Source: Pirellulaceae bacterium
GTDB lineage: Bacteria > Planctomycetota > Planctomycetia > Pirellulales > Pirellulaceae
Direction of reading: 5' to 3'
Assembly: GCA_030748485.1 (NCBI GenBank)
Contig: JASMLW010000598.1
Location: forward strand, 1-18,918
DNA length: 18,918 bases
The position numbers were made by a program, and so were the translations under genes. Below, one piece after another: positions 1 to 18,163 of the stretch. The stretch's first letter is position 1. Each line of letters begins with the position of its first letter. Under the pieces are notes generated by a model. It saw only the letters and a program-made list of their open reading frames with translations. It had not been told where the DNA came from and did no database searches.

Positions 1-3
1 GAA

Positions 4-19
4 TGGAACGTTGGTTGCA
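4..19 (+). promoter_or_regulatory. Sigma54 (RpoN)-like -24/-12 element TGGAAC-N5-TTGCA, copy 1
   Basis: TGGAAC(4-9)-gttgg-TTGCA(15-19) against the consensus TGGCAC-N5-TTGCW. It has the invariant GG and GC with correct 10-nt spacing and one mismatch in the -24 box. An overlapping second near-match, TGGCACG-N4-GTTCA at 22-37, has a poor -12. Not validated. Confidence 0.3.
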
Positions 20-29
20 GCTGGCACGC

Positions 30-94
30 GTGGTTCACCCGTGCTCAAGCACGGGCCTATGCCGCCTGCGGCGGATGGGGGCGTAAACGCCCCT
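30..94 (+). ncRNA. Candidate small structured RNA unit (three consecutive hairpins) downstream of the sigma54-like motif, copy 1
   Basis: Three hairpins: CCCGTGC-tcaa-GCACGGG (38-55), CCGCC-tgc-GGCGG (62-74) and GGGGCG-taaa-CGCCCC (78-93). Copy 1 is followed by a ttt stretch. There is no coding potential. Purely structural inference. Confidence 0.2.
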
Positions 95-161
95 GGGTTT
101 GGAACGCGGCGGCGCGGGTCGGCGCGAATGTGGAACGCGGCAGCGCGGGGCGGCGCGGGAA

Positions 162-177
162 TGGAACGTTGGTTGCA
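162..177 (+). promoter_or_regulatory. Sigma54-like -24/-12 element TGGAAC-N5-TTGCA, copy 2
   Basis: Identical motif inside the second copy of the 94-bp repeat. Confidence 0.3.
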
Positions 178-187
178 GCTGGCACGC

Positions 188-252
188 GTGGTTCACCCGT
201 GCTCAAGCACGGGCCTATGCCGCCTGCGGCGGATGGGGGCGTAAACGCCCCT
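188..252 (+). ncRNA. Candidate small structured RNA unit, copy 2
   Basis: Identical sequence and hairpins in the second repeat copy. Confidence 0.2.
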
Positions 253-275
253 CTGACTCGCCGGCGTCCTGCCTC

Positions 276-331
276 CTTAGTCATTAGTCCTTCGTCATTC
301 CTTAGTCATTAGTCGTTAGTCATTAGTCATT
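276..331. repeat. Imperfect heptamer microsatellite (TTAGTCA)n, about 7.5 units, AT-rich in a GC-rich genome. Overlaps the stop codon of the minus-strand hydrolase gene.
   Basis: ttagtca ttagtcc ttcgtca ttcc ttagtca ttagtcg ttagtca ttagtca. It puts stop codons (TAG / TAA / TGA) in all six frames. Confidence 0.85.
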
Positions 332-1410
332 CTCCCCCCCCTCACTCCTTCTACTTCCGTGATCATCACTTTCAGCGAGGCGGAGGTGATCGCGGCTTGA
401 GTCGCGTACTTGGGAGTATCGCTGGCGGGGAATGTCGCCAGAGTCGCATCCCCCACCAGGAAGACGTTGAAGTCTCCACGCAAGTTTTCGTATCCTGCCA
501 TCGTGCTGCAGACGCACATGTCGGTTGCGTAACCGGTCAATAAGATGTGTCGCACGCCTTGCTTCTTCAGAAAGTCGCGCAGCCGCTCATATCCTTCGCC
601 ATCGTATGCGACGATATCCGATTGCGCGACGTCGATTCCCTGGACGACGGGAATCGGCAACTGCCAGAAGCCGTCGCCGTTGTAGTGGGGGCCGGCGTCC
701 AGCGCCGGGAACTTGAGGAAGTAGTCGATCAGGGGCGTTCGCGTCGACAACGCGAACGATTCCGGCGGACCCTGGGCCGTGTAATCGTATTTCGCCAACG
801 CCGCCGTCAACAGACGCTGTCCTTCTAGCTGACCCAATTTGGACGGGGAGTTCGACAGCGAGCGGTAACGCTGCTTGCGGATCGCGTCGCCCGCGCCGGG
901 CAAACTGTAAATGACTTCGCGCACGCTCCCCCGCATCCGCTTTAGGAATGGATTCAACACTTGCGAGACATGTCGGTGGTAGATCGCATTTTTCTCCGGC
1001 GTGCAAAAAAACGCCACGCCCGCCGGCTGTGGACTCTTCCAGCCCTGTCCGTCGTCGATGCCCCACGGGTGCACGACCACCATCGCCGTCTGGTCGCCGC
1101 GGAGGCGGTTCTCGCTGACGATGACTCCGCGAGCGTGATACGAGTATCGCCAGCTGCGGACCGAGATCGTCGGGTCCGCGTCGTCGACGACCGCCGCCGT
1201 ACCGAACTGCCGAGTCGGCCGCAATGGTTGAACGAACTCGGGGAACTGATTCAGCAGCGGGCCCGCATTCGGCAACGGCTGCAACTTGAGGTTCACTGGG
1301 CGAGTCTCTTCGCCTCTCTCCTCGCCACGACTAGACGTTGCTGCTGCAACGATTGCGAACGCCAGCGAAACGCCAAGTAGCGGGCGGAGAAGTTGTGTGA
1401 CTTCAGACAT
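316..1410 (-). CDS. Secreted isochorismatase-family cysteine hydrolase (signal peptide plus isochorismatase-like fold)
   Basis: 364-aa ORF. N-terminal hydrophobic signal-like segment LLRPLLGVSLAFAIVAAATS. The TAMVVVHPWGIDDG block and the C-terminal ILLTGYATDMCVCSTMAGYENLRGDFNVFLVGDA block are typical of the isochorismatase / CSHase family catalytic Cys region. Plausible RBS gagg before the ATG at 1410. Confidence 0.6.
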   Translation of the reverse strand: MSEVTQLLRPLLGVSLAFAIVAAATSSRGEERGEETRPVNLKLQPLPNAGPLLNQFPEFVQPLRPTRQFGTAAVVDDADPTISVRSWRYSYHARGVIVSENRLRGDQTAMVVVHPWGIDDGQGWKSPQPAGVAFFCTPEKNAIYHRHVSQVLNPFLKRMRGSVREVIYSLPGAGDAIRKQRYRSLSNSPSKLGQLEGQRLLTAALAKYDYTAQGPPESFALSTRTPLIDYFLKFPALDAGPHYNGDGFWQLPIPVVQGIDVAQSDIVAYDGEGYERLRDFLKKQGVRHILLTGYATDMCVCSTMAGYENLRGDFNVFLVGDATLATFPASDTPKYATQAAITSASLKVMITEVEGVRGGRMTND

Positions 1411-6653: not shown

Positions 6654-7298
6654 GTGGAAGTAATTGAAACACTAACGACTGGCCCCAATCTTTTTGCATC
6701 CATCGTGATGGGTGTCGTGCTGATCTACTGGCTGATGGTGATCGCCGGCGCCGCTGATATCGAATTGTTTGATTTTGACATCGATATCGGCGCCGACGTT
6801 GATATCGATGGTGACATCGACGTCGGTTCGGCAACCAGCGTCGGTTTTGTTGTGCTACGTTTTCTCAACATTGGCCAAGTGCCGTTGGTCATTTGGGGCA
6901 GTGTGTTCGTGATCGGTTTTTGGATCAGTTCGCTCGCTTTTACGCTCTTTTTCGACGACCGGACTACGTACTCGGATTACACAACGGTGGCGTTGTACGT
7001 GTTGCGCAACTTCGCCATCGGCGTGTTCGGCGCGAAGTTGATTACCACTCCCATGGTTCCGTGGTTCGAGATCGACGAAGGACCGAAGCCGGAGGAGTTG
7101 GTCGGAAAGTCGTGCGAGGTGACGGCTCCGCTAAAAGCTGATAGCCGCGGACAAGCGAGTTTTCGGACGAACGCGGCGCCGCTGTTGATTCACGTGAGAT
7201 GTGAGAAAGACGAATTCCGCAAGGGCGACACCGCGCGGATTGTTGCATACGACGCAGAAACAAAGACCTACCTGATTGAATCGGTTCGCGAGGTATAA
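6654..7298 (+). CDS. NfeD-like (YqiJ / YuaF-type) membrane protein with a C-terminal OB-fold domain; flotillin operon partner
   Basis: 214 aa. Hydrophobic N-terminal helices. Acidic DIELFDFDIDIGADVDIDGDIDVG loop. Two to three TM segments, then a soluble C-terminal domain (KSCEVTAPLKADSRGQASFRTNAAPLLIHVRCEKDEFRKGDTARIVAYD) typical of the NfeD short form. Stop is 2 nt before the flotillin ATG. GTG start at 6654 (an alternative ATG lies at 6708). Confidence 0.6.
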   Translation: MEVIETLTTGPNLFASIVMGVVLIYWLMVIAGAADIELFDFDIDIGADVDIDGDIDVGSATSVGFVVLRFLNIGQVPLVIWGSVFVIGFWISSLAFTLFFDDRTTYSDYTTVALYVLRNFAIGVFGAKLITTPMVPWFEIDEGPKPEELVGKSCEVTAPLKADSRGQASFRTNAAPLLIHVRCEKDEFRKGDTARIVAYDAETKTYLIESVREV

Positions 7299-7300
7299 CC

Positions 7301-9427
7301 ATGGAAATCTTGATCTACATCGGCATTACGGTTGGCGCTATCGTCGTCATTCTCGGCGGCCTTGGAGTCGCGCTGGCTCGCTTCTACAAGAAGGTCGGGC
7401 CCGAAGAGGCGCTCGTCCGAGCCGGCACGGGGCAACTCAAGACCGTCACTGGCGGCGGTATGTGGGTCGTGCCCATCTTCCACCGTGTGGAGAACATGGA
7501 CCTGACTCTCAAGCGGATTGAGATCGCTCGCGATGGCCACGACGGTCTGGTCTGCAAAGACAACATTCGAGCCGATATCAAGGTCGCCTTCTTTGTTCGC
7601 GTCGACAAAGATCCCGACAAGATTAAAGAAGTCGCTCAGTCGATCGGCTGCACGCGAGCCTCGGATCACTCGACATTGGTCGACCTGTTTGACGCCAAGT
7701 TCTCCGAAGCGCTGAAGACGGTCGGTAAGTCATTCGACTTTGTGCAGCTTTACGAGGAACGCGATAACTTCAAAGGCGAAATCCTCAAAGTCATCGGCAC
7801 CGACCTAAACGGCTACGCGCTCGACGATTGTGCGATCGATTACCTCGAACAGACTCCGGTCGAGATGCTCAACCCGAGCAATATCCTCGACGCTGAAGGA
7901 ATCAAGAAGATCACCGCGCTGACGGCCAAAGAGAAGATGCTCGAGAACGAGATCACGCGGGAGAAAGAGAAGACGCTCAAGAAGCAGGACGTCGAAGCTC
8001 AGGAAGCCATCCTCGAACTCGAACGACAGCGAGTTGAAGCTGTCCAAAAGCAAGAGCGCGAGATCGCTACGATTACAGCTCGCGAAAAAGCCGAGGCTCG
8101 CAAGGTTGAGCAAGAGCAGACGCTGATCTCCGAACGAGCTCGAATCTCGACCGAAGAAGAAGTCGGCGTGGCGGAAGAAAACAAACAACGTCAAGTGCTT
8201 GTCGCCTTGCGGAACAAAGAACGCACCGATCAAGTCGAGTTGGAACGCGTGCAGCGCGACCGCGACTTGGAAATGACGGAACGCGTACGAGTCGTCTCGT
8301 TGGCCGACATCGACAAAGACAAGGCGATCGAAGTCGAGAAACGCAACATCCAGGAAGTCATTCGCGAACGCGTCGCCGTGGAAAGAGCCGTCGTCGAAGA
8401 GCAAGAGCGGATCAAGGACACGGAAGAGTTCGCCGGAGCCGATCGGGCTAAGCGAGTCACCGTGACCGCTGCTGAGATGACCGCCCAAGAGTCGTTGGTG
8501 AAGGAAGTCAAAGCCGCCGAAGCAGCCAAGACGTCGTCTGAACTGCTCGCCGAGAAGACTGTCATCGAAGCCGAAGCTGGGCGCAAGGCGGCCGAAAAAG
8601 AAACGCATGCGACCAAGATGTTGGCCGAAGCGGCTCAAGCAGAGAAAGCCGCGCCGGGATTGGCCGACGCACAAGTCCAGGTCGCCACCGCCGAGGCCAT
8701 CGAGAAGACCGGACTGGCCGAAGCGACCGTCACCGAGAAGACCGGTTTGGCCGAAGCCACCGTCATCGAAACGAAAGCCGTCGCCGAAGCCAAGGGAGAC
8801 GAAGCTAGAGCGGTTGCGATCGAAAAGACTGGTTACGCCGAAGCCACCGTCATGCAACAGAAGTTCAGCAGCGAAGCGACGGGTATCCAAGAGAAGGCCG
8901 AAGCGATGAAGTTGTTCGACGGCGTTGGCCGCGAGCACGAAGAGTTCAAACTGCGGCTGAACAAAGATAAGGACATTGAAATCGCCGCCATCGGCGCCCA
9001 GCAAGAGATCGCGGAAGCTCAGGCGGGCATCGTCGGCGAGGCTGTCAAGCAGGCTCGCATCGACATCGTGGGCGGCGATTCGCAGTTCTTCGACCAGATT
9101 ATCAACGCGGTCAAGGGCGGCAAAGCGGTCGATCGCTTCGTGCACAACAGCGAAACGCTGACGGACATGAAGAACACGTTCTTCAACGGTAATCCGGAGT
9201 ACTTCCGCGATAAGTTGCAGGACCTGGTCGGGCAGTTCGACTTGAGCACCGACGATATCAAAGATCTCTCCATCGCGGCGCTGATCGCCAAAATGATGGG
9301 GCTGACCAACAGCGATGAAGTTCGCGGCGAACTCCGCCGGCTCGCCGAGATGGCGCAAAGCGTCGGACTGGCTGGCTCGAACTTCTCGTCCCTACGGCTC
9401 GGTTCAACAGAGAAGAGCAACTCTTAG
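7301..9427 (+). CDS. Flotillin-family SPFH (band-7) protein (FloT / YqiK-like) with an extended coiled-coil and EA-repeat region
   Basis: N-terminal TM helix IYIGITVGAIVVILGGLGVAL, then YKKVGPEEALVRAGTG and an SPFH core. Long E/K/R coiled-coil. C-terminal Ala/Glu 'EA' repeats EKTGLAEATVTEKTGLAEATVIETKAVAEAKGDEARAVAIEKTGYAEATV alignable to B. subtilis FloT, plus the conserved C-terminal flotillin tail. GAGGT RBS. The in-frame repeats appear as ~33-bp DNA repeats at 8697-8850. Confidence 0.85.
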   Translation: MEILIYIGITVGAIVVILGGLGVALARFYKKVGPEEALVRAGTGQLKTVTGGGMWVVPIFHRVENMDLTLKRIEIARDGHDGLVCKDNIRADIKVAFFVRVDKDPDKIKEVAQSIGCTRASDHSTLVDLFDAKFSEALKTVGKSFDFVQLYEERDNFKGEILKVIGTDLNGYALDDCAIDYLEQTPVEMLNPSNILDAEGIKKITALTAKEKMLENEITREKEKTLKKQDVEAQEAILELERQRVEAVQKQEREIATITAREKAEARKVEQEQTLISERARISTEEEVGVAEENKQRQVLVALRNKERTDQVELERVQRDRDLEMTERVRVVSLADIDKDKAIEVEKRNIQEVIRERVAVERAVVEEQERIKDTEEFAGADRAKRVTVTAAEMTAQESLVKEVKAAEAAKTSSELLAEKTVIEAEAGRKAAEKETHATKMLAEAAQAEKAAPGLADAQVQVATAEAIEKTGLAEATVTEKTGLAEATVIETKAVAEAKGDEARAVAIEKTGYAEATVMQQKFSSEATGIQEKAEAMKLFDGVGREHEEFKLRLNKDKDIEIAAIGAQQEIAEAQAGIVGEAVKQARIDIVGGDSQFFDQIINAVKGGKAVDRFVHNSETLTDMKNTFFNGNPEYFRDKLQDLVGQFDLSTDDIKDLSIAALIAKMMGLTNSDEVRGELRRLAEMAQSVGLAGSNFSSLRLGSTEKSNS

Positions 9428-9442
9428 TAACCCATGAGGCTG

Positions 9443-9470
9443 GGCGGCGAGCCGCGATTAGCTCGCCGCC
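9443..9470 (+). other. Strong intercistronic stem-loop (10-bp perfect GC-rich stem, 8-nt loop) 16 nt after the flotillin stop. No U-tract.
   Basis: GGCGGCGAGC-cgcgatta-GCTCGCCGCC. Candidate partial terminator or mRNA stability/processing element that would set flotillin versus giant-ATPase stoichiometry. Confidence 0.5.
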
Positions 9471-9532
9471 TGACGCCGGTTCCGCACTGCGGCGACGACT
9501 GGCGGCCACCTCACGGGTGAAGGAACGGAGCC

Positions 9533-12500
9533 ATGGCAGAAGCCACCACAACAGACGCCGCGCCTGAGGCGCAACTTGAAGGCGGCGCATACGAGATCAT
9601 TCGCAATCGACTTGTCACACAAGGCAAGGAGTTGCGAGATCGGTTGCACCAACTGAACGACGCCCGCAAGGCCGTCTTCGGCGCAATCGACACCGAATTG
9701 CTCGGCACCGACCGGATCTCGACCAACCACAATTGCACGCCCCGCGACATGGTGGCGATCGGCGATCGCTTCATCTTTGGATACAACGTTCAGTTCGGCC
9801 TCAAGTCCGAGATCTCGCTGGCCGACGTCTTCGCCGTTTACGAGTATCGCGATCGAGGTTTTCACGAACAGCCGCTCGAGTTTATTCAGGTCGGCAACTT
9901 CGAGCGAGATTTCAAAGAGATCTACCGCTACTACAAGAATGCGACGTTCGCCAAGTTCTTTTTGACGGGCCCTTATCTCTTCATGGTGTTTCAGGTCGGA
10001 CGCGACAGCACCGACATCAAGGCGCTGAAGTTCCTGATCAATGACGATACTCTGACGTATCTCGACAATCGCAGCGATCACGAGGTTAAATACCCGTCGC
10101 AGCACGAGTTCGAATGGACCCGGACGACTCGCGATCAGCACCGACACGGCGCGCACCCCCACATCTCGCTTCACGATCGTGTGTTCGTCGAGACGGTTGG
10201 CGGCGACCTGACGATCAAAGTCGAGAACAACACGCAGTCCGGCGAAGGCATCTACGCCGAGGATGTCGAACATACGGATCAGACTCTCGACGACGCCGAG
10301 ATCTACTACGCGATCGTCGGCAATCTGATCTTGATGAAGATTCGCCCCTATCAGGAAGAGGCGTTTCGCTACATCGTCTTCAACGAGAAGACACAGCAAG
10401 CTCGGCGCATCGACGCCATCGCCGACGCTTGCGTCTTGCTGCCGGACGATCACGGGTTGATCTTCTCGCGCGGCTACTACTTGCAAACCGGCGAATTCAA
10501 GACGTTTGAGAGTGACGTTACTGAAATGCTGTTTGAACGCCGGCTGGCGGCGTCGAACGGCGAAGACTACATGTATGTCTTCTACAATCACCAGCTCGGC
10601 GTTTACGTCCTACTGACGTACAACGTGATCGAACAGCGAGTCGAGACGCCGATTATCGTGCACGGCTTCACGCTGTTCGACAGCGGCGAAATGGTCTGCT
10701 TTAAATCGCAGGACGAACCACAGAAACACCACGCGATTCAGATTTGGAAGACGCCGTATGTCGGCGAGGGGTTCGAGACCCACGAGGAGACGGATTCCTA
10801 TATTTACAAGATCGGCAACCGCGATCTCGTCCGCGGCATGGCCGAGTGCTACGAAGTTCTCTCCCTGATCGACAAAGAGGACACCTACGCCGGGTTGTAC
10901 GTCGATCTGGTGAAGAAGACCGGCGACATCATCGACTCGTACTTCTGGATCGACTCGACCGAGACGCATCGGCCGGCGGAAGTGCTCGGCCAGATTCGCG
11001 GAGCCGCTGAGTCGGCGGTCGAAGAGTTCGAAAAGGTCGTCCGGCTCAAACAAAACACGCTCGGCGAAACCAAACGAGTACAGCAGCACTGCCAGGAGAT
11101 CATGGCCGAGCTGCACCGCAAGCGATTCGAGCACATTCTCGAGTTCGTCCAATCGCTCGGCGACCTGCGAGCCGCCCGCGGCGACATTATCTCGCTCCGC
11201 GAGTTGCGCTACATCGACGGCGGCCTCGTCGACAAGCTGGAGGAAGACGTCGCGGAGAACGCCGAGAAACTCGCGCAACGCTGCGTCGAGTTCCTGTTGC
11301 GCGACGACTCGTTGGCTCCCTACGTCGCAAAGGTCGCCGAACAGCGCGGCCGCATCGACGGCCTGGAAAAAGTCAGCGAGGCGAAGGAGCTGGAGGAGGA
11401 GATCGCCTCCAGCGCCGGTGAACTCGAGATGCTGATCGACATCGTCAGCAACCTGAAGATCGACGACGCCACGCAGCGAACGGCGATCATCGACAGCATT
11501 TCTGGAATCTTCGCGGGAGTGAACCAGGCGCGGTCGGCGCTGAAGAACAAGACCAAAGAACTCGCTTCGGTCGAAGGCGTCGCCGAATTCAATTCACAAC
11601 TGAAGCTGCTCAATCAAAGCGTCGTCAACTATCTCGACGTTTGCGACTCCCCCACCAAGTGCGAAGAGTTCCTCACCAAGATGATGGTGCAGCTGGAGGA
11701 GCTCGAGGGCCGCTTCGCCGAGTTCGACGAGTTCGTGGTGCAGCTGACCGACAAACGCGAGGAGATCTACAACGCGTTTGAGTCGCGGAAGCTGGCGCTG
11801 GTCGAAGCTCGTAACAAGCGAGCCACCTCGCTGATGAGCGCGGCGAATCGGATCTTGAAAGGCATCAAGACTCGCGTCGACAACATGGAGTCGATCAACG
11901 ACATCAACGGGTACTTTGCATCCGATTTGATGATCGAAAAGGTTCGCGATCTGTGTGAAGAGCTCAAGGAACTCGACGATTCGGTCAAGGTCGACGACAT
12001 CCAGAGCCGGATGAAGTCGGTTCGCGAGGACGCCGTCCGCCAGCTCAAAGATCGACAGGATCTGTTTGTCGGCGGCGAGAATGTCATCAAGTTCGGCAAC
12101 CACCAATTCAATGTCAACGTCCAGGCTCTCGACTTGACGATGGTGTTGCGTGACGGCGAGATGAACTTGCATCTGACCGGCACGAATCTGTTTGAGCCGA
12201 TTGAGAATGAGGAGCTGATCTCGCTGCGCGAGGTTTGGGATCAGGAAGTCGTCAGCGAGAACAAGAGTGTCTATCGGGCTGAGTACTTGGCGTACTTGAT
12301 GTTGCGGGCCGTCCGCGGCGACGAATTCGATCAGTCGGCCGCGCAGATACTGAAGCTCACTCCTGACGAGCGTGTCGCGATGGTTCAGCGCTTCATGGGG
12401 CCGCGGTACAGCGAGGCGTACGTGAAAGGCGTCTCCGATCACGACGCCGCGTTGCTGCTCGGCTCACTGCTCGAGATGGATCAAACGATCGGCATGTTGC

Positions 12501-14932
12501 GCTACCACGCCCGCGCTCGCGCCATTGCCGCCGCGTTTTGGAATTGGTTCGCCGATCCTGAATGGCGCGAGCTAATGGGAGCCCGGCTGAGAGGATTGGG
12601 CAGGATCACGGACCTGTTCCCCGATGCTCGCGAGCGACAGAAATATATCGATTCGATTCGCGCCGCGATCGGCGACTACAACGCGCAATCGAAAATGTTC
12701 GACGATGAATTCATCGACGAAGCGGCGACCTATCTCTGCCACGAGCTAAGCGATCGGGACCACTTTACCGTGAGTCGCAATGCGGCGACGCTCCGCGACG
12801 AATTCCAAGGGCATCTCAAACACGCCGGCCACGCTGAGGCGTTCGCCCACTCGGTCGCCGAAGTCCGCGAAGACGCGGCCAGTTGGTTCACGCTGGTGCG
12901 TGACTGGGCGTCGGCGTTTATTGAAAGACGCGAGGCGCGAGAAGACGATCTCGACTACGTCGACGAACTGGCCGTGCTCTTGATGCGCGAGCAAGTGGAT
13001 GTGGGACACATTGTCGATGGCGATGTCGCCAAGGCGATCGGTGGCATGTCGGGAGCTCACGGGGTCATCGAAGGCGGCCAATATCAGCTGCACTTCAATC
13101 ACTTCCTGCAAAAGCTACACGAGTACGAACGAGTTACCGCGCCGAGGTTTCAGCGGTACATCGAATTGAAGAAAGAGATCGTCGAGGAAGGTCGCCAGGG
13201 AATGCGGCTCGACGAGTTCCGTCCCCGCGTGCTCACGTCGTTCGTCCGCAACAAACTGATCGATTCGGTCTACCTGCCGCTCGTGGGCGACAATCTAGCC
13301 AAGCAGATGGGCGTCGCCGGCGAGCAGAAGCGGACGGACTTGATGGGCCTGCTGCTGCTCATCTCACCGCCCGGGTACGGTAAGACGACGCTGATGGAGT
13401 ACATCGCCAATCGACTCGGCCTGATCTTCATGAAGATCAACGGCCCGGCGATTGGGCATCACGTGACATCGCTCGATCCCGTCGAAGCTCCCAACGCCGG
13501 AGCGCGGGAAGAGGTCATGAAGCTGAATCTCTCTCTCGAGATGGGCGATAACGTGATGATCTATCTCGACGATATTCAACACTGCAATCCGGAGTTCCTG
13601 CAGAAGTTCATCTCGCTCTGCGATGCGCAGCGTAAGATCGAAGGCGTCTATAAGGGCAAAACGCGGACCTACGACCTGCGAGGTCGAAAGGTCGCCGTTG
13701 TCATGGCCGGCAACCCCTACACGGAGAGCGGCGAGAAGTTCCAGATCCCCGACATGCTTTCGAACCGGGCCGATATCTACAACCTGGGCGAGATCATCGG
13801 CGATTCGGCGGACGCCTTCGAGATGAGTTACCTGGAGAACTCGTTGACGTCCAACCCGGCGCTCAACAAGCTCGCCTCGCGAAGCCAGCAAGATGTCTAC
13901 GGAGTGATTCAGATCGCCGAGCGCGACAGTCGCGAAGGCGTCGATCTCGAAGGCAACTACTCGCTCGAAGAGGTCGATGAATTCGTTCGCGTCATGAAGA
14001 AGCTGTTCCGCGTCCGCGACGTCGTGCTGCGCGTGAACCGGCAGTATATCGAGTCGGCCGCGCAGGCGGACGAGTATCGCACCGAGCCGCCGTTCCTGCT
14101 TCAGGGATCGTATCGAAACATGAACCGCATCGCCGAAAAAGTGGTGCCGATCATGAACGATGAAGAGCTGGAGTCTCTGATCCTGAGCAACTACGAGAAC
14201 GACGCCCAGACGTTGACATCCAATACTGAGTCGAACCTGCTCAAGTTGCGCGAGATGCTGAGTATTCTGACCAAGGAAGAGGAACGGCGGTGGGAGGACA
14301 TCAGACGGACGTTCTCGCAGAACGTCAAACTCAAAGGCGTCGGCGCCGACGACCAATTCGGTCAGGTCATCGTGCAGCTCAGTTCGTTCAGCGACGGGCT
14401 CGACTCCTTGCGGCGCGCTGTCGCTGACGGCGTCGAACGGCTGGCCGAGCAAGACGACGAAGGGAAGTCGGTCGAAGTTGTCGTCGGCGAGCTGAGCGGA
14501 CTGCGAGAAGGGCTCACCGCCATCAAGGGCGCGCTTGAACAGGCGGGAACGGACGAGGCGATCGGCGCGCTGGCCGCTCAACTTCGCGAAGCCGTTCCTG
14601 TCCCCGCGCTCCCCGCTGCGTTGGCGGAACCGGTTCCCAGCGAGCCATTTCCCGTCGAGCTGGCGCGCAATGAGACGACGGAAATGCACCGCATCACCGT
14701 CCAGCACAAAGTGCCGCGCAGCATCCTGGATGTCGTCCGCACGCAGTTCGAAGTCATGGAGGGTTGGATGAGTCCGCTGCTGAGCACAGCCAAGGAAAAC
14801 TCGGCTGGCATCACCCAACTTCGCAACTCGGTCGACGAGTGCCTGCGCAGCTACGCGCTGTTGCTGAGCGAACTCGAAAGCGCGAAGCCCTTGAAAAAGG
14901 CGAAGAAGACGACCAAGAAGAAACGCAGCTAG
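9533..14932 (+). CDS. Giant (1,799 aa) soluble protein: N-terminal beta-rich region (~430 aa), ~800-aa coiled-coil/helical region, a single AAA_5 (MoxR / midasin / dynein-type) ATPase module, a helical C-terminal region and a polybasic tail
   Basis: A 5.4-kb ORF cannot occur by chance at this GC content. Walker A LLLISPPGYGKTTL (nt ~13365-13390), Walker B VMIYLDDIQH (~13553-13580), AAA_5-type sensor VVMAGNPYTESGEKFQIPDMLSNRADIYNLG (~13700-13790). No TM segments. C-terminal tail AKPLKKAKKTTKKKRS. RBS AAGGAACGGAG. Confidence 0.85.
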   Translation: MAEATTTDAAPEAQLEGGAYEIIRNRLVTQGKELRDRLHQLNDARKAVFGAIDTELLGTDRISTNHNCTPRDMVAIGDRFIFGYNVQFGLKSEISLADVFAVYEYRDRGFHEQPLEFIQVGNFERDFKEIYRYYKNATFAKFFLTGPYLFMVFQVGRDSTDIKALKFLINDDTLTYLDNRSDHEVKYPSQHEFEWTRTTRDQHRHGAHPHISLHDRVFVETVGGDLTIKVENNTQSGEGIYAEDVEHTDQTLDDAEIYYAIVGNLILMKIRPYQEEAFRYIVFNEKTQQARRIDAIADACVLLPDDHGLIFSRGYYLQTGEFKTFESDVTEMLFERRLAASNGEDYMYVFYNHQLGVYVLLTYNVIEQRVETPIIVHGFTLFDSGEMVCFKSQDEPQKHHAIQIWKTPYVGEGFETHEETDSYIYKIGNRDLVRGMAECYEVLSLIDKEDTYAGLYVDLVKKTGDIIDSYFWIDSTETHRPAEVLGQIRGAAESAVEEFEKVVRLKQNTLGETKRVQQHCQEIMAELHRKRFEHILEFVQSLGDLRAARGDIISLRELRYIDGGLVDKLEEDVAENAEKLAQRCVEFLLRDDSLAPYVAKVAEQRGRIDGLEKVSEAKELEEEIASSAGELEMLIDIVSNLKIDDATQRTAIIDSISGIFAGVNQARSALKNKTKELASVEGVAEFNSQLKLLNQSVVNYLDVCDSPTKCEEFLTKMMVQLEELEGRFAEFDEFVVQLTDKREEIYNAFESRKLALVEARNKRATSLMSAANRILKGIKTRVDNMESINDINGYFASDLMIEKVRDLCEELKELDDSVKVDDIQSRMKSVREDAVRQLKDRQDLFVGGENVIKFGNHQFNVNVQALDLTMVLRDGEMNLHLTGTNLFEPIENEELISLREVWDQEVVSENKSVYRAEYLAYLMLRAVRGDEFDQSAAQILKLTPDERVAMVQRFMGPRYSEAYVKGVSDHDAALLLGSLLEMDQTIGMLRYHARARAIAAAFWNWFADPEWRELMGARLRGLGRITDLFPDARERQKYIDSIRAAIGDYNAQSKMFDDEFIDEAATYLCHELSDRDHFTVSRNAATLRDEFQGHLKHAGHAEAFAHSVAEVREDAASWFTLVRDWASAFIERREAREDDLDYVDELAVLLMREQVDVGHIVDGDVAKAIGGMSGAHGVIEGGQYQLHFNHFLQKLHEYERVTAPRFQRYIELKKEIVEEGRQGMRLDEFRPRVLTSFVRNKLIDSVYLPLVGDNLAKQMGVAGEQKRTDLMGLLLLISPPGYGKTTLMEYIANRLGLIFMKINGPAIGHHVTSLDPVEAPNAGAREEVMKLNLSLEMGDNVMIYLDDIQHCNPEFLQKFISLCDAQRKIEGVYKGKTRTYDLRGRKVAVVMAGNPYTESGEKFQIPDMLSNRADIYNLGEIIGDSADAFEMSYLENSLTSNPALNKLASRSQQDVYGVIQIAERDSREGVDLEGNYSLEEVDEFVRVMKKLFRVRDVVLRVNRQYIESAAQADEYRTEPPFLLQGSYRNMNRIAEKVVPIMNDEELESLILSNYENDAQTLTSNTESNLLKLREMLSILTKEEERRWEDIRRTFSQNVKLKGVGADDQFGQVIVQLSSFSDGLDSLRRAVADGVERLAEQDDEGKSVEVVVGELSGLREGLTAIKGALEQAGTDEAIGALAAQLREAVPVPALPAALAEPVPSEPFPVELARNETTEMHRITVQHKVPRSILDVVRTQFEVMEGWMSPLLSTAKENSAGITQLRNSVDECLRSYALLLSELESAKPLKKAKKTTKKKRS

Positions 14933-14990: not shown

Positions 14991-15019
14991 CGCCACGAGC
15001 TTGAGCATTCTCTCTCGCG

Positions 15020-15932: not shown

Positions 15933-16255
15933 GTCGCCGAATCAAATCGCCGCGCGGTGTTGAGTGGAACGTCCATTGTCGCGACGCTTTGTACGATGGC
16001 CTTCCGAGGCCGTCGAATGCGGGTTATCCCCAAGAGTCCCCACCAGATTCGTGCTCAGCGTCGAATCAAATCGCCGCGCGGTGTCGAGTGGAACGTCCAT
16101 TGTCGCGACGCTTTGTACGATGGCCTTCCGAGGCGCCTTCCGAGGCCGTCGAATGCGGGTTATCCCCGAGAGTCCCCACCAGATTCGTGCTCAGCGTCGA
16201 ATCAAATCGCCGCGCGGTGTCGAATGGAACGTTCATTGTCGCGACTTCGTCGCGA
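15933..16255. repeat. Tandem repeat array: about 2.6 copies of a ~124-bp unit (unit 2 is 136 bp because of an internal 12-bp duplication cgccttccgagg; unit 3 is truncated and diverged) in the convergent intergenic region
   Basis: GAATCAAATCGCC unit landmarks at 15939, 16063 and 16199. Each unit contains the 8-bp palindromes CCGCGCGG and GTCGCGAC and a TGGAAC-N5-TTGTC motif. Unit 3 contains GAATGGAACGTT, identical to the first 12 nt of the window. Confidence 0.9.
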
Positions 16256-16258
16256 GGT

Positions 16259-16313
16259 CCTGCCCGGCAGGCAGCACCTACAGCAGGACCTACTGCAGGA
16301 CCTACTGGGACCT
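16259..16313. repeat. Palindrome CCTGCC-c-GGCAGG (16259-16271), then tandem 12-mer CAGGACCTACTG x2.5 (16284-16313), immediately 3' of the regulator stop
   Basis: Seen directly. A possible bidirectional terminator or structure between convergent genes. Confidence 0.6.
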
Positions 16314-16315
16314 GC

Positions 16316-18163
16316 TTACTCTCCTTTGGCGTCCAGTTTGTTGTAGAGGGTGCCGCGGCCGATCTCGAGAATGCGGCAGGCTTTGGTCTTGTTCCCGCCC
16401 ACTTGTTCGAGCACGTAGTGGATGTGCCTCCGCTCGGCCTCGCGCACCGACATCAGTTGCGGTGTCGGATTGGTGTCGCGCTGGTGGACGGGCATCCCCA
16501 GATCCTCCACCGTCACTTCATCGCCGCGGCCGAGCACGATCGCCCGCTCGATGGCGTTCCGCAACTCACGAACGTTGCCAGGCCAGCGATAACTGCGGAT
16601 TCCCTCGACCGCTTCGCGTGAAAACCGCTGGGGTCCGCGTCCCAACTGCGCGCGGAAGTGCTCCAGGAACAACGACGCCAGTTCAATGACGTCGTCGGCG
16701 CGCTCGCGGAGCGGCGGCATCTGGATGTCGATCACGCGGAGACGAAAGTAGAGGTCCTCGCGAAACTCCTTTTGACCGACGAGTTCAACGAGATCTCGGT
16801 GAGTTGCGGCGACGACGCGGACGTCGACCTTGATCGACTCCTCGCCGCCGAGCCGCTGAAAGGGGTGTCCCTCGAGTATCCGCAGCAACTTGGCCTGACA
16901 CGCCAGGCTCATCTCCCCCACTTCGTCCAGGAAGATCGTCCCGCGATGAGCTCGCTCGAATTGTCCGATGTGCCGGCGGTCGGCTCCAGTGAACGTGCCC
17001 ACTTCGTGCCCAAACAACTCGCTCTCCAACAACGACTCGCTAAAGGCGGCGCAGTTGACCGTCACGTAGGGTCCGTCTTTTCGTTCGCTGAGCTCGTGGA
17101 TCGATTGCGCGACCAACTCCTTGCCGGTGCCGCTTTCGCCCAAGACCAGCACGTTCGAACTGGTCGGACCGACGCGGGCGACTTGATCGAGCACGCGTTG
17201 CATCGCTTCGCTCGAGCCCGCCATTTGCGACTTCGAGTCGAGCCGGCGCTTGAGTTCCTCGTTCGCCTGCTCCAAACGCTCGCGATGCTCGACGTTCTCC
17301 AGCGCCGCTCCCATTTGGTGGGCGACGACGACGGCGAAGTCGAGATCGCTGCGAGCAAACGGATCTCGCTCCGGCTGCCGATGGCACTCGATCGCTCCCC
17401 GCACACTCGAACGGCCGGGAATCGGCACGCCGATGCCCGTTCCAACTGACAGAGGCGCGTCAGTGACCGTTTGGTCCTCGCTCCCCTGCGGCTTGTCGAT
17501 CAAGATCGCCTTGTCCTGCTCGACCGCCAGACTCGCCAACACATGCTCGTCGCGCGACTTGCCCCACGACGCGGCGCAACGCAACCGTCCGTCGGTGCCC
17601 GCCAACCAGATCGAGACCGCGTCGGGATCGACGCCGTCGACCAGTGCGTCCAAGGCGCAGCGGACCAACTCCGCCGGCGCCTGTGACTCGTGAAGCAGAT
17701 TGGCGACCCGGCAGAGAACGGCCGAATCTCGGACCACCCGCGATGCGCTGCGGCCCATCTTCTGTTCAACTAGTTTCGAGTGCGGGTCGTCGATCGGCAG
17801 CCGACCCATCATCGTCGTCGGGTGCAGCAATTCGGGCTTGAGAGAACTCGGCTCCTCGCCACCGGAACTCTCCGCAAACAGAATCAAGTGGTCGCCGATG
17901 CGCACCAGGTCCCCCGCCTCCAGCGTCCCCTGTTTGATCGGCTGTGTGTTGACAAAGGTGCCGTTCAAGCTGTCGGCGTCCCGCAGGTGCCAGCTCCCCG
18001 AACGATGGAAAATCTCCGCGTGCAGACGGCTCGCGCGGTCGTCGTCCAGAGGCAGATCACGCGTCGGATGGCGGCCGATCGTGACCGGATCCGGTCGCTC
18101 GGGGTCCAGACGCAACGTCGTCCCCGGATAGGCGCCGTTGAGCAACACAAGTGACCACGACAT
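16316..18163 (-). CDS. Sigma54-dependent transcriptional activator (bacterial enhancer-binding protein) with an N-terminal FHA domain, a central GAF-like domain, an AAA+ sigma54-interaction domain and a C-terminal Fis-type HTH
   Basis: FHA region TIGRHPTRDLPLDDDRASRLHAEIFHRSGSWHLRDADSLNGTFVN. AAA+ region VLVLGESGTGKELVAQ ... ESELFGHEVGTFTGA (GAFTGA variant) ... IFLDEVGEMS ... RVVAATHRDL. HTH region GGNKTKACRILEIGRGTLYNKL. GGGAGG RBS before the ATG at 18163. Confidence 0.9.
   Translation of the reverse strand: MSWSLVLLNGAYPGTTLRLDPERPDPVTIGRHPTRDLPLDDDRASRLHAEIFHRSGSWHLRDADSLNGTFVNTQPIKQGTLEAGDLVRIGDHLILFAESSGGEEPSSLKPELLHPTTMMGRLPIDDPHSKLVEQKMGRSASRVVRDSAVLCRVANLLHESQAPAELVRCALDALVDGVDPDAVSIWLAGTDGRLRCAASWGKSRDEHVLASLAVEQDKAILIDKPQGSEDQTVTDAPLSVGTGIGVPIPGRSSVRGAIECHRQPERDPFARSDLDFAVVVAHQMGAALENVEHRERLEQANEELKRRLDSKSQMAGSSEAMQRVLDQVARVGPTSSNVLVLGESGTGKELVAQSIHELSERKDGPYVTVNCAAFSESLLESELFGHEVGTFTGADRRHIGQFERAHRGTIFLDEVGEMSLACQAKLLRILEGHPFQRLGGEESIKVDVRVVAATHRDLVELVGQKEFREDLYFRLRVIDIQMPPLRERADDVIELASLFLEHFRAQLGRGPQRFSREAVEGIRSYRWPGNVRELRNAIERAIVLGRGDEVTVEDLGMPVHQRDTNPTPQLMSVREAERRHIHYVLEQVGGNKTKACRILEIGRGTLYNKLDAKGE

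Follow-up and report, generated by a model that had tools for sequence, protein, structure and literature searches.

A tandem array of hairpin-bearing units was identified at the left end of an 18,918-nt stretch of DNA from an uncultured marine member of the Pirellulaceae (NCBI GenBank assembly GCA_030748485.1, contig JASMLW010000598.1; the whole stretch is referred to below as the window). The repeated unit of 94 nt carries a sigma-54-like promoter motif followed by three hairpins, and it is certain that the array is a lineage-specific, recently amplified, non-coding tandem repeat lying within a quasi-palindromic structure between two convergent genes. As to its origin and role, we lean, with a confidence that falls a little short of even, towards the view that it arose via inverted duplication and unequal crossing-over at a rearrangement junction and acts, if at all, as a hairpin cluster of the repetitive extragenic palindrome (REP)/bacterial interspersed mosaic element (BIME) type. 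This view is based on the four copies in a convergent spacer, the inverted copies and bounding repeat beside them, an adjoining REP element, and a second array that reiterates this REP. It is also based on the equal folding of the hairpins on both strands, the position at a synteny breakpoint, the orphan state of the unit, and the loss of the -24 GG in decayed copies. An earlier note on the window had instead proposed a duplicated small RNA (sRNA) gene or a reiterated RpoN-dependent control element, and this proposal is weighed in the last section.

Copies, setting and layout of the array

The source contig is a JGI metagenome contig of 26,088 nt (3300035204, Ga0373647_0001040; locus L001) that extends to the left of the window, and coordinates were converted as window x = L001 position 11411 - x. 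Tandem Repeats Finder reported a period of 158 nt with 4.0 copies and 95% matches for the full array on L001, which is far above chance level. The window holds copies 3 and 4, the right-hand half of this four-copy direct array. Thus, the earlier note was right in suspecting that the window edge cuts a longer array. It had also described two copies 158 bp apart, and the alignment of window 1-94 with 159-252 indeed gave 100% identity and a start-to-start distance of 158 nt. Every 94-nt copy opens with GAATGGAACGTTGGTTGCA. The 158-nt period is composed of two 31-nt TGGAACG subrepeats and the 94-nt module with its three hairpins; the GGAACG half-repeats previously noticed in the spacer correspond to these two subrepeats, which open with TGGAACGCGGC. 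The positions of all features are listed in Table 1.

Table 1. Positions of the array, the structures around it and other features of the locus.
Feature	Location	Strand or orientation	Details
94-nt unit, copy 1	L001 11727-11634, outside the window	direct	
94-nt unit, copy 2	L001 11568-11475, outside the window	direct	
94-nt unit, copy 3	window 1-94	direct, +	covariance model 127.6 bits
94-nt unit, copy 4 (last)	window 159-252	direct, +	motif 162-177; hairpins 196-213, 220-232, 235-252
Sigma-54-like -24/-12 motif	window 4-19	+	TGGAACGTTGGTTGCA; GG at 5-6, GC at 17-18
Hairpin 1	window 38-55		palindrome CCCGTGC-TCAA-GCACGGG; 7 bp
Hairpin 2	window 62-74		CCGCC-TGC-GGCGG; 5 bp
Hairpin 3	window 77-94		(G)GGGGCG-TAAA-CGCCCC(T); 6 bp and one G-U pair; GC-rich, no T-run behind
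Spacer of the 158-nt period	window 95-158	+	GGGTT, then two 31-nt subrepeats (about 100-130 and 131-161)
Decayed inverted copy	L001 11788-11877	opposite	covariance model 25.9 bits
Decayed inverted copy	L001 11908-12000	opposite	covariance model 11.4 bits
27-nt inverted repeat, right arm	window 254-280		TGACTCGCCGGCGTCCTGCCTCCTTAG; arms 93% complementary
27-nt inverted repeat, left arm	L001 12017-11991, outside the window
TTAGTCA/TTAGTCC heptamer run	window 274-337		overlaps stop codon of the minus-strand gene
Inverted heptamer counterpart	L001 12147-12180		overlaps stop codon of the kinase gene
Palindromic REP element	L001 12045-12127 and window 15989-16154		GTACGATGGCCTTCC(A/G)AGGCCGTCG ... 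CGACGGCCTTGGAAGGCCATCGTAC; L001 occurrence about 600 nt upstream of window 1
Isochorismatase-family gene	window 316-1410	-	3' end faces the array
Second non-coding tandem array	window 15935-16270		period 124/136, about 2.5 copies; each unit one REP and flanking DNA
Sigma-54 activator gene	window 16316-18163	-	FHA-GAF-AAA+-HTH

The copies were not confined to one assembly. Locus L002 (JGI sample 3300035206) reproduces three copies and L095 (NCBI GCA_030744035.1) two copies, both including the single-nucleotide differences and both assembled independently. Since three assemblies agree, the repeat is real, and an assembly artefact was ruled out by the like appearance of the copies in L001, L002 and L095. 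The same population was found in these two data sets, in two Logan runs, in TARA and in further ENA assemblies; the other assemblies (L002, L003, L004, L094 and L095) end within the array or just before it. Several other identities were rejected. The period is not a multiple of three and no gene was called in the array, which rules out a coding sequence. A CRISPR array was ruled out since the stretches in the place of spacers are repeats as well and the period measures 158 nt, compared with repeats of 24-48 nt separated by unique spacers. Riboswitch and retron readings failed as their defining parts were not present. A CsrA sponge, for which repeated ANGGA motifs would speak, was also put aside for want of support. 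What was found are near-identical, head-to-tail, non-coding units, as in a minisatellite or variable number tandem repeat (VNTR).

Two convergent genes flank the array, which takes up the 1050-nt spacer that separates their 3' ends. The left gene encodes a Ser/Thr kinase with a TAXI-type solute-binding domain and is the final gene of a block consisting of ProRS, PLD, an extracytoplasmic function (ECF) sigma factor (TIGR02984) and the kinase. The right gene is the isochorismatase-family gene, whose protein is deposited at NCBI as MDP7020237.1 from a metagenome-assembled genome (MAG) named Pirellulaceae bacterium. The ECF sigma family TIGR02984 is specific to Planctomycetaceae, and this sigma factor and the kinase lie directly upstream of the array on the same strand. 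Owing to the location between convergent gene ends, transcripts from either gene would meet the same GC-rich hairpin stack, and a promoter at the array on the plus strand would fire antisense into the isochorismatase-family gene. Orthologous ProRS-PLD-ECF-kinase loci in more distant relatives (kinase 45% identical) have no array; there, a co-directional PSCyt/DUF1501 gene pair follows 58-194 nt after the kinase. These two differences place the array at a synteny breakpoint, and by such sequence comparison it is specific to this lineage.

With a covariance model built on the 94-nt unit, two decayed inverted copies were detected to the left of the array. From left to right, two inverted copies thus precede the four direct ones, and the whole structure of approximately 890 nt is enclosed by the 27-nt inverted-repeat arms and the heptamer runs. 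The 27-nt arms prolong the homology between the inverted and direct copies, and the left arm is split by a 130-nt palindromic element with inverted ends of its own. The simplest history would start from an inverted duplication, after which one arm expanded in tandem. In this scheme, the inverted duplication would have occurred at a rearrangement junction, and one arm would then have been enlarged through unequal crossing-over or slippage, aided by the internal 31-nt subrepeats.

Some further properties of the bounding elements were observed. A perfect TAAGGAGG (on the opposite strand, CCTCCTTA) lies within the 27-nt inverted repeat. The heptamer runs (TTAGTCA; TGACTAA on the other strand) close all three reading frames of each incoming gene with stop codons, and the Logan contigs end exactly at these runs. 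In 591 kb of related genomes, no relatives were found. The leader of the ECF sigma gene (L001 15035-15125) contains short tandem repeats (CATTGCCGTTCATGC twice, TTGTTGTTTG three times) and a GAAC-N18-CGTT element resembling an ECF-type promoter.

Hairpins, promoter-like motif and variation among copies

Folding recovered all three stems of 7, 5 and 6 (+1) bp, in agreement with the three perfect hairpins of the earlier note. On either strand, the 94-nt unit was more stable than its shuffles (plus, z = -2.9; minus, z = -2.4), and so was the hairpin part alone (plus, z = -1.9 to -3.2; minus, z = -3.4), which folds equally well on either strand. As the stems are perfect palindromes, the hairpins do not identify the strand, and their sequence could equally serve as protein-binding dyads in DNA. 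A two-unit transcript on the plus strand was no better than shuffles (z = -0.19). The minimum-energy fold of the whole unit was -48.1 kcal/mol on plus versus -40.6 kcal/mol on minus, and in the plus-strand fold the "promoter" segment is paired with hairpin 2 via five G-U pairs. This G-U-rich fold is a weak hint, from modelling, of a plus-strand RNA. Searches with Rfam 15, including the Qrr and Pxr models, gave no match at the gathering threshold; the best sub-threshold match was an archaeal snoRNA model (20.2 bits against a gathering score of 55), with nothing credible at the E-value threshold. No tRNA or tmRNA genes were found.

The motif TGGAACG-N4-TTGCA differs by one mismatch from TGGCACG-N4-TTGCW with a GG-GC distance of 12 nt, and the canonical spacing and single mismatch are present in all four direct copies. 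As a sequence, the sigma-54-like promoter motif of the earlier note thus stands. Its background is less simple. Comparison with 591 kb of related Pirellulaceae DNA yielded eight sites of the same quality, six of which lie outside long open reading frames; as judged from sequence, this clade therefore seems to use the canonical motif, and the site in the array is as good as those intergenic candidates. However, a shuffled window is expected to contain 0.21 sites that have one mismatch or none, and a single unique site is therefore not significant at the window level. The motif was also not conserved among homologous copies: the -24 GG is missing in both decayed inverted copies, and the only other occurrence of the GAATGGAACGTT module, in the second array of the same contig, has TTGT instead of TTGC at -12.

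The sigma-54 activator gene mentioned in the earlier note is indeed present in the window, on the minus strand, and no rpoN was found on the 26-kb contig. The activator gene is located 16 kb from the array, so a link between the two is not meaningful. The activator has an unusual FHA and GAF sensory N-terminus, and its contact loop reads GTFTGA rather than GAFTGA. Directly after its stop codon lie three tandem 12-mers (GCAGCACCTACA, GCAGGACCTACT, GCAGGACCTACT; window 16271-16306).

Variation among the four copies was uneven along the period. Of the 35 columns that make up the first 31-nt subrepeat and the junction, 10 were variable, as against 3 of 122 in the second subrepeat and the 94-nt unit; the corresponding pairwise differences were 3-8 per 35 nt and 1-2 per 122 nt. 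The second subrepeat is as invariant as the 94-nt unit, and the variability of the period lies in the first. Both the sigma-54-like motif and the hairpins fall inside the invariant 122-nt block. Two substitutions within the unit were uncompensated, one disrupting hairpin 1 and the other altering the base of hairpin 3. The unevenness is the one signal that suggests constraint. This pattern fits a functional block of about 122 nt with a free spacer, as in the cassette model, and fits as well a gene-conversion homogenisation that ends in the first subrepeat or error-prone duplication junctions.

Relatives of the unit, the adjoining REP element and the second array

We searched for the unit in several collections. 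An exact 23-mer of the 5' module gave no match in the metagenome, genome and viral contig collections, the degenerate 3' module GCGGCGGATNGGGGCGTAANCGCCCC none in the metagenome contig collection, and a 20-mer of hairpin 1 none in the viral contig collection. The whole 887-nt structure had no match among plasmids in distant mode. When the unit and both repeat-bearing spacers were compared by blastn with the 591 kb of related Planctomycetota loci, only the REP was in common. Over the collections and loci compared, the unit is not the common dispersed REP-like repeat that would have refuted the proposal of the earlier note. Over 628 kb, the covariance model detected the array's own copies, the two decayed inverted copies and one weak match in locus L028 (Pirellulaceae MAG MFD05684.bin.1.174, positions 1165-1255, 21.4 bits). 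This match was rejected as a homologue; it rests on a pair of generic hairpins that have a UAAA loop, and the sigma-54 spacing is missing. It lies in an intergenic hairpin run (L028 1165-1320; CCACCAGC-TTTA-GCTGGTGG, AGCCGGC-TAAA-GCCGGCT and CACCGGC-TGAA-GCCGGTG) that opens with GAATGGA. This run may be a distant analogue, and coincidence is more likely.

Possible mRNA targets of the putative sRNA on the contig were also considered: a 10-nt match (window 9512-9521) that precedes the 1799-aa ATPase gene, 12-21 nt before its ATG, and a 9-nt match before the formamidase-like gene (window 14999-15007) that starts 21 nt upstream of the start codon. Both were rejected, as the two matches together were at about chance level and the complementary bases are paired in hairpin 1. 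The ATPase gene belongs to a co-directional three-gene set on the plus strand (window 6654-14932) that encodes a YqiJ/NfeD-like membrane protein, a 708-aa protein without a Pfam match and the 1799-aa DUF3686/DUF7902/AAA+ ATPase; this set may represent an uncharacterised system.

A dispersed REP/REPIN, GTACGATGGCCTTCCAAGGCCGTCG, is present in the same spacer as the array and was found at at least 85 loci in genomes of Pirellulaceae and Planctomycetota. Its core, GTACGATGGCCTTCCRAGGC, was scanned in one genome per species; matches were obtained in at least 85 stretches, and among the matches listed nearly all were in Pirellulaceae or Planctomycetota MAGs, mostly paired in inverted orientation at the ends of genes. 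The matches listed came from about 25 MAGs and from Neorhodopirellula pilleata. In REPs, one end of the stem-loop carries a GTAG or CGTC tag that stays unpaired, and a CGTC-tagged class has been reported in Planctomycetes (Di Nocera et al. 2013, PMC3733652). The neighbouring REP has a GGCCTT/AAGGCC stem followed by CGTC and, by its sequence, looks like a CGTC-tagged REP of this type. The neighbouring GTACGATGGCCTTCC element is thus a dispersed palindrome, and over the 26-kb contig and the 591 kb of related DNA the 94-nt unit is not.

The second array occupies the only other convergent junction of the 26-kb contig, where the sigma-54 activator gene faces the formamidase-like gene. GAGTGGAACGTCCATTGTCG or GAATGGAACGTTCATTGTCG is present in its units, which have a 12-mer in common with the start of the 94-nt unit; the similarity between this array and the unit was only marginally significant, as 13 of 500 shuffles reached the score. 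Besides the REP, the units hold a GAGTGGAACGTCCATTG module. In the ENA assembly L092 this array is one 124-nt unit shorter than in the source contig, for which assembly collapse is a possible cause. The TARA scaffold has a gap of Ns at this site.

Weighing of the readings and their meaning

REP/BIME clusters are repetitive extragenic palindromes reiterated in tandem together with flanking DNA (Di Nocera et al. 2013, PMC3733652). Like them, the array is extragenic, hairpin-rich, located at convergent gene 3' ends, present in both orientations and amplified in tandem with flanking DNA; moreover, it adjoins a genuine REP/REPIN of the same genome, and the second array reiterates that REP. It differs in that the hairpins of the unit are not a dispersed REP and have no GTAG or CGTC tag, and in that the 158-nt period is much longer than a REP. 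If the array has any effect, it would be that of a REP/BIME-like extragenic hairpin cluster that hinders read-through and 3'-exonucleolytic decay between the convergent genes. The sigma-54-like motif would then be a chance resemblance that was co-amplified, and the copies would not be independent sigma-54 transcription units.

Several observations weigh against this favoured view. None of the REP tags GTAG, CTAC, CGTC and GACG occurs in window 1-158, and no other copy of the unit was found outside the array on the 26-kb contig or in the 591 kb of related DNA. The variation along the period is significantly uneven (Fisher p = 1.7e-5), and the invariant block includes a 37-nt non-hairpin 5' part that bears the sigma-54-like motif; altogether, 68 nt of the block have no strong hairpin and are left unaccounted for by a purely structural role. 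At the background rate, a one-mismatch site would fall inside this particular 158-nt unit with a frequency of only about 0.2%. A terminator function was not demonstrable either. The GC-rich last stem, which had been likened to a terminator in the earlier note, is present, but it is not followed by a U-tract (tails TGGGTTTGG and CTCTGACTC), and no terminator-like sites were found in the region. Canonical terminators across the window were at chance level (19 found versus 18.4 expected), so the missing U-tract is uninformative.

The competing proposal, that of tandem sRNA genes, would give each 158-nt period its own sigma-54 promoter, a start at about window 29 or 187, and an RNA of approximately 65 nt with three hairpins that ends at the UAAA-loop stem. 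The palindromes of the preceding unit, centred at about -141 and -101, could serve as activator sites. We consider this unlikely, yet credible enough to be kept in view. What speaks for it are the motif, one mismatch from consensus at canonical spacing in all four copies, the largely intergenic position of comparable sites in related genomes (six of eight), the sigma-54 activator encoded by the organism, the inclusion of motif and hairpins in one invariant block with 35 variable nucleotides between cassettes, and the long plus-strand helix with its five G-U pairs and lower folding energy. There are also two precedents. In heterocystous cyanobacteria, NsiR1 is encoded by 12 tandem cassettes, each with its own promoter and each yielding an RNA of about 60 nt; its transcription was shown experimentally, and it is conserved across genomes and has a HetR-dependent DIF+ promoter (PMC4030482). 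Tandem short cassettes with their own promoters are the architecture proposed in the earlier note, whereas the present array is non-conserved, has a sigma-54-like motif and is known from sequence alone. Pxr of Myxococcales, predicted to form a triple stem-loop of about 100 nt, has its own sigma-54 promoter and adjoins a sigma-54 activator gene, and in Cystobacter it occurs as tandem paralogs, each with its own sigma-54 promoter (PMC5568312). The promoter motif, the three stem-loops and the tandem copies are shared with our array; on the other hand, our unit resembles Pxr neither in sequence nor in Rfam searches, the activator gene lies at a distance of 16 kb, near-identical copies stand in place of diverged paralogs, and no orthologues were found.

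The sequence features on which the sRNA or RpoN cassette was proposed are real, and the invariant block agrees with it. Several observations speak against it. Neither an Rfam match, Qrr and Pxr models included, nor a homologue in the collections searched was obtained; the within-unit substitutions are uncompensated, one of them at the cost of hairpin 1; and on the minus strand the folding of the three hairpins is equally good or better. In addition, no U-tract follows the last stem, the -24 GG is missing in the decayed copies and the GAATGGAACGTT module of the second array deviates at -12, chance alone would give about 0.2 sites of equal quality in a window, shuffles are as stable as a two-unit transcript, and hardly any unpaired nucleotides are left for a seed region. 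A bank of four or more near-identical sRNA genes, each with its own sigma-54 or ECF-type promoter, enhancer-like palindromes in the preceding unit and a triple-hairpin RNA of about 65 nt, appears a shade less probable than the simple cassette reading.

The array might instead act on the DNA as a phased series of protein-binding sites for a regulator, a nucleoid- or partition-type protein, or an ECF sigma factor that uses GGAAC as its -35 element. Twelve heptamers (11 TGGAACG and, leftmost, GGGAACG) are spaced at 31/31/96 nt, and at 10.5 bp per turn all of them lie within about 0.35 helical turn, that is, on one face of the helix. However, this phasing follows automatically from the 31-nt subrepeat and is not independent evidence for binding. 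The non-hairpin second subrepeat and 5' module are as invariant as the hairpins, and the ECF sigma gene and kinase lie directly upstream, with GAAC-N18-CGTT before the ECF gene and GAAC-N19-CGTG inside the unit; read as ECF -35/-10 elements, though, these are loose motifs whose spacing is off by one. TGGAACG is not enriched in the related DNA (101 occurrences in 591 kb on both strands, near expectation, and none near REPs), and no candidate binding protein was identified. We regard such a binding array as quite improbable.

Even less probable, in our estimate, is a non-autonomous mobile element resembling a miniature inverted-repeat transposable element (MITE) or foldback element, with the 27-nt inverted repeat and the heptamers as its termini and the tandem units as cargo. 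The inverted arms (27 nt at 93%) with their heptamer runs, the splitting of the left arm by a REPIN-like element with inverted ends of its own, and the position at a synteny breakpoint would be in keeping with this. However, no target-site duplication is visible at the outer ends, no second copy of the arms was found on the contig or in the 591 kb of related DNA, no transposase gene is nearby, and the arms are better explained as continued homology between inverted and direct copies.

With regard to its form, the array also recalls the intergenic minisatellites and VNTRs of bacteria, such as the mycobacterial interspersed repetitive units (MIRUs), which are head-to-tail, non-coding, intergenic units of about 50-150 nt in near-identical copies. 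The head-to-tail arrangement, the near-identity and the period that is not a multiple of three are alike; the placement within a larger quasi-palindrome and the strongly uneven variation along the period are different. The copy number of the array may differ between populations, as the assemblies suggest for the second array.

If the array is only a lineage-specific hairpin repeat, it carries little weight, as one more build-up of repeats at convergent junctions and rearrangement breakpoints, and it would also be one reason why assemblies of this marine Pirellulaceae break. A cheap check in metatranscriptomes is made worthwhile by a single feature, the uneven variation along the period. A bank of sRNA genes, if true, would be a dosage array like those of NsiR1 and Pxr and, as far as we found, the first sRNA array described in Planctomycetota. 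A sigma-54 cassette, if true, would offer a first handle on sRNA regulation and on the use of sigma-54 promoters in Planctomycetota, and would be the second clear case after NsiR1 in which sRNA dosage is built via tandem amplification.

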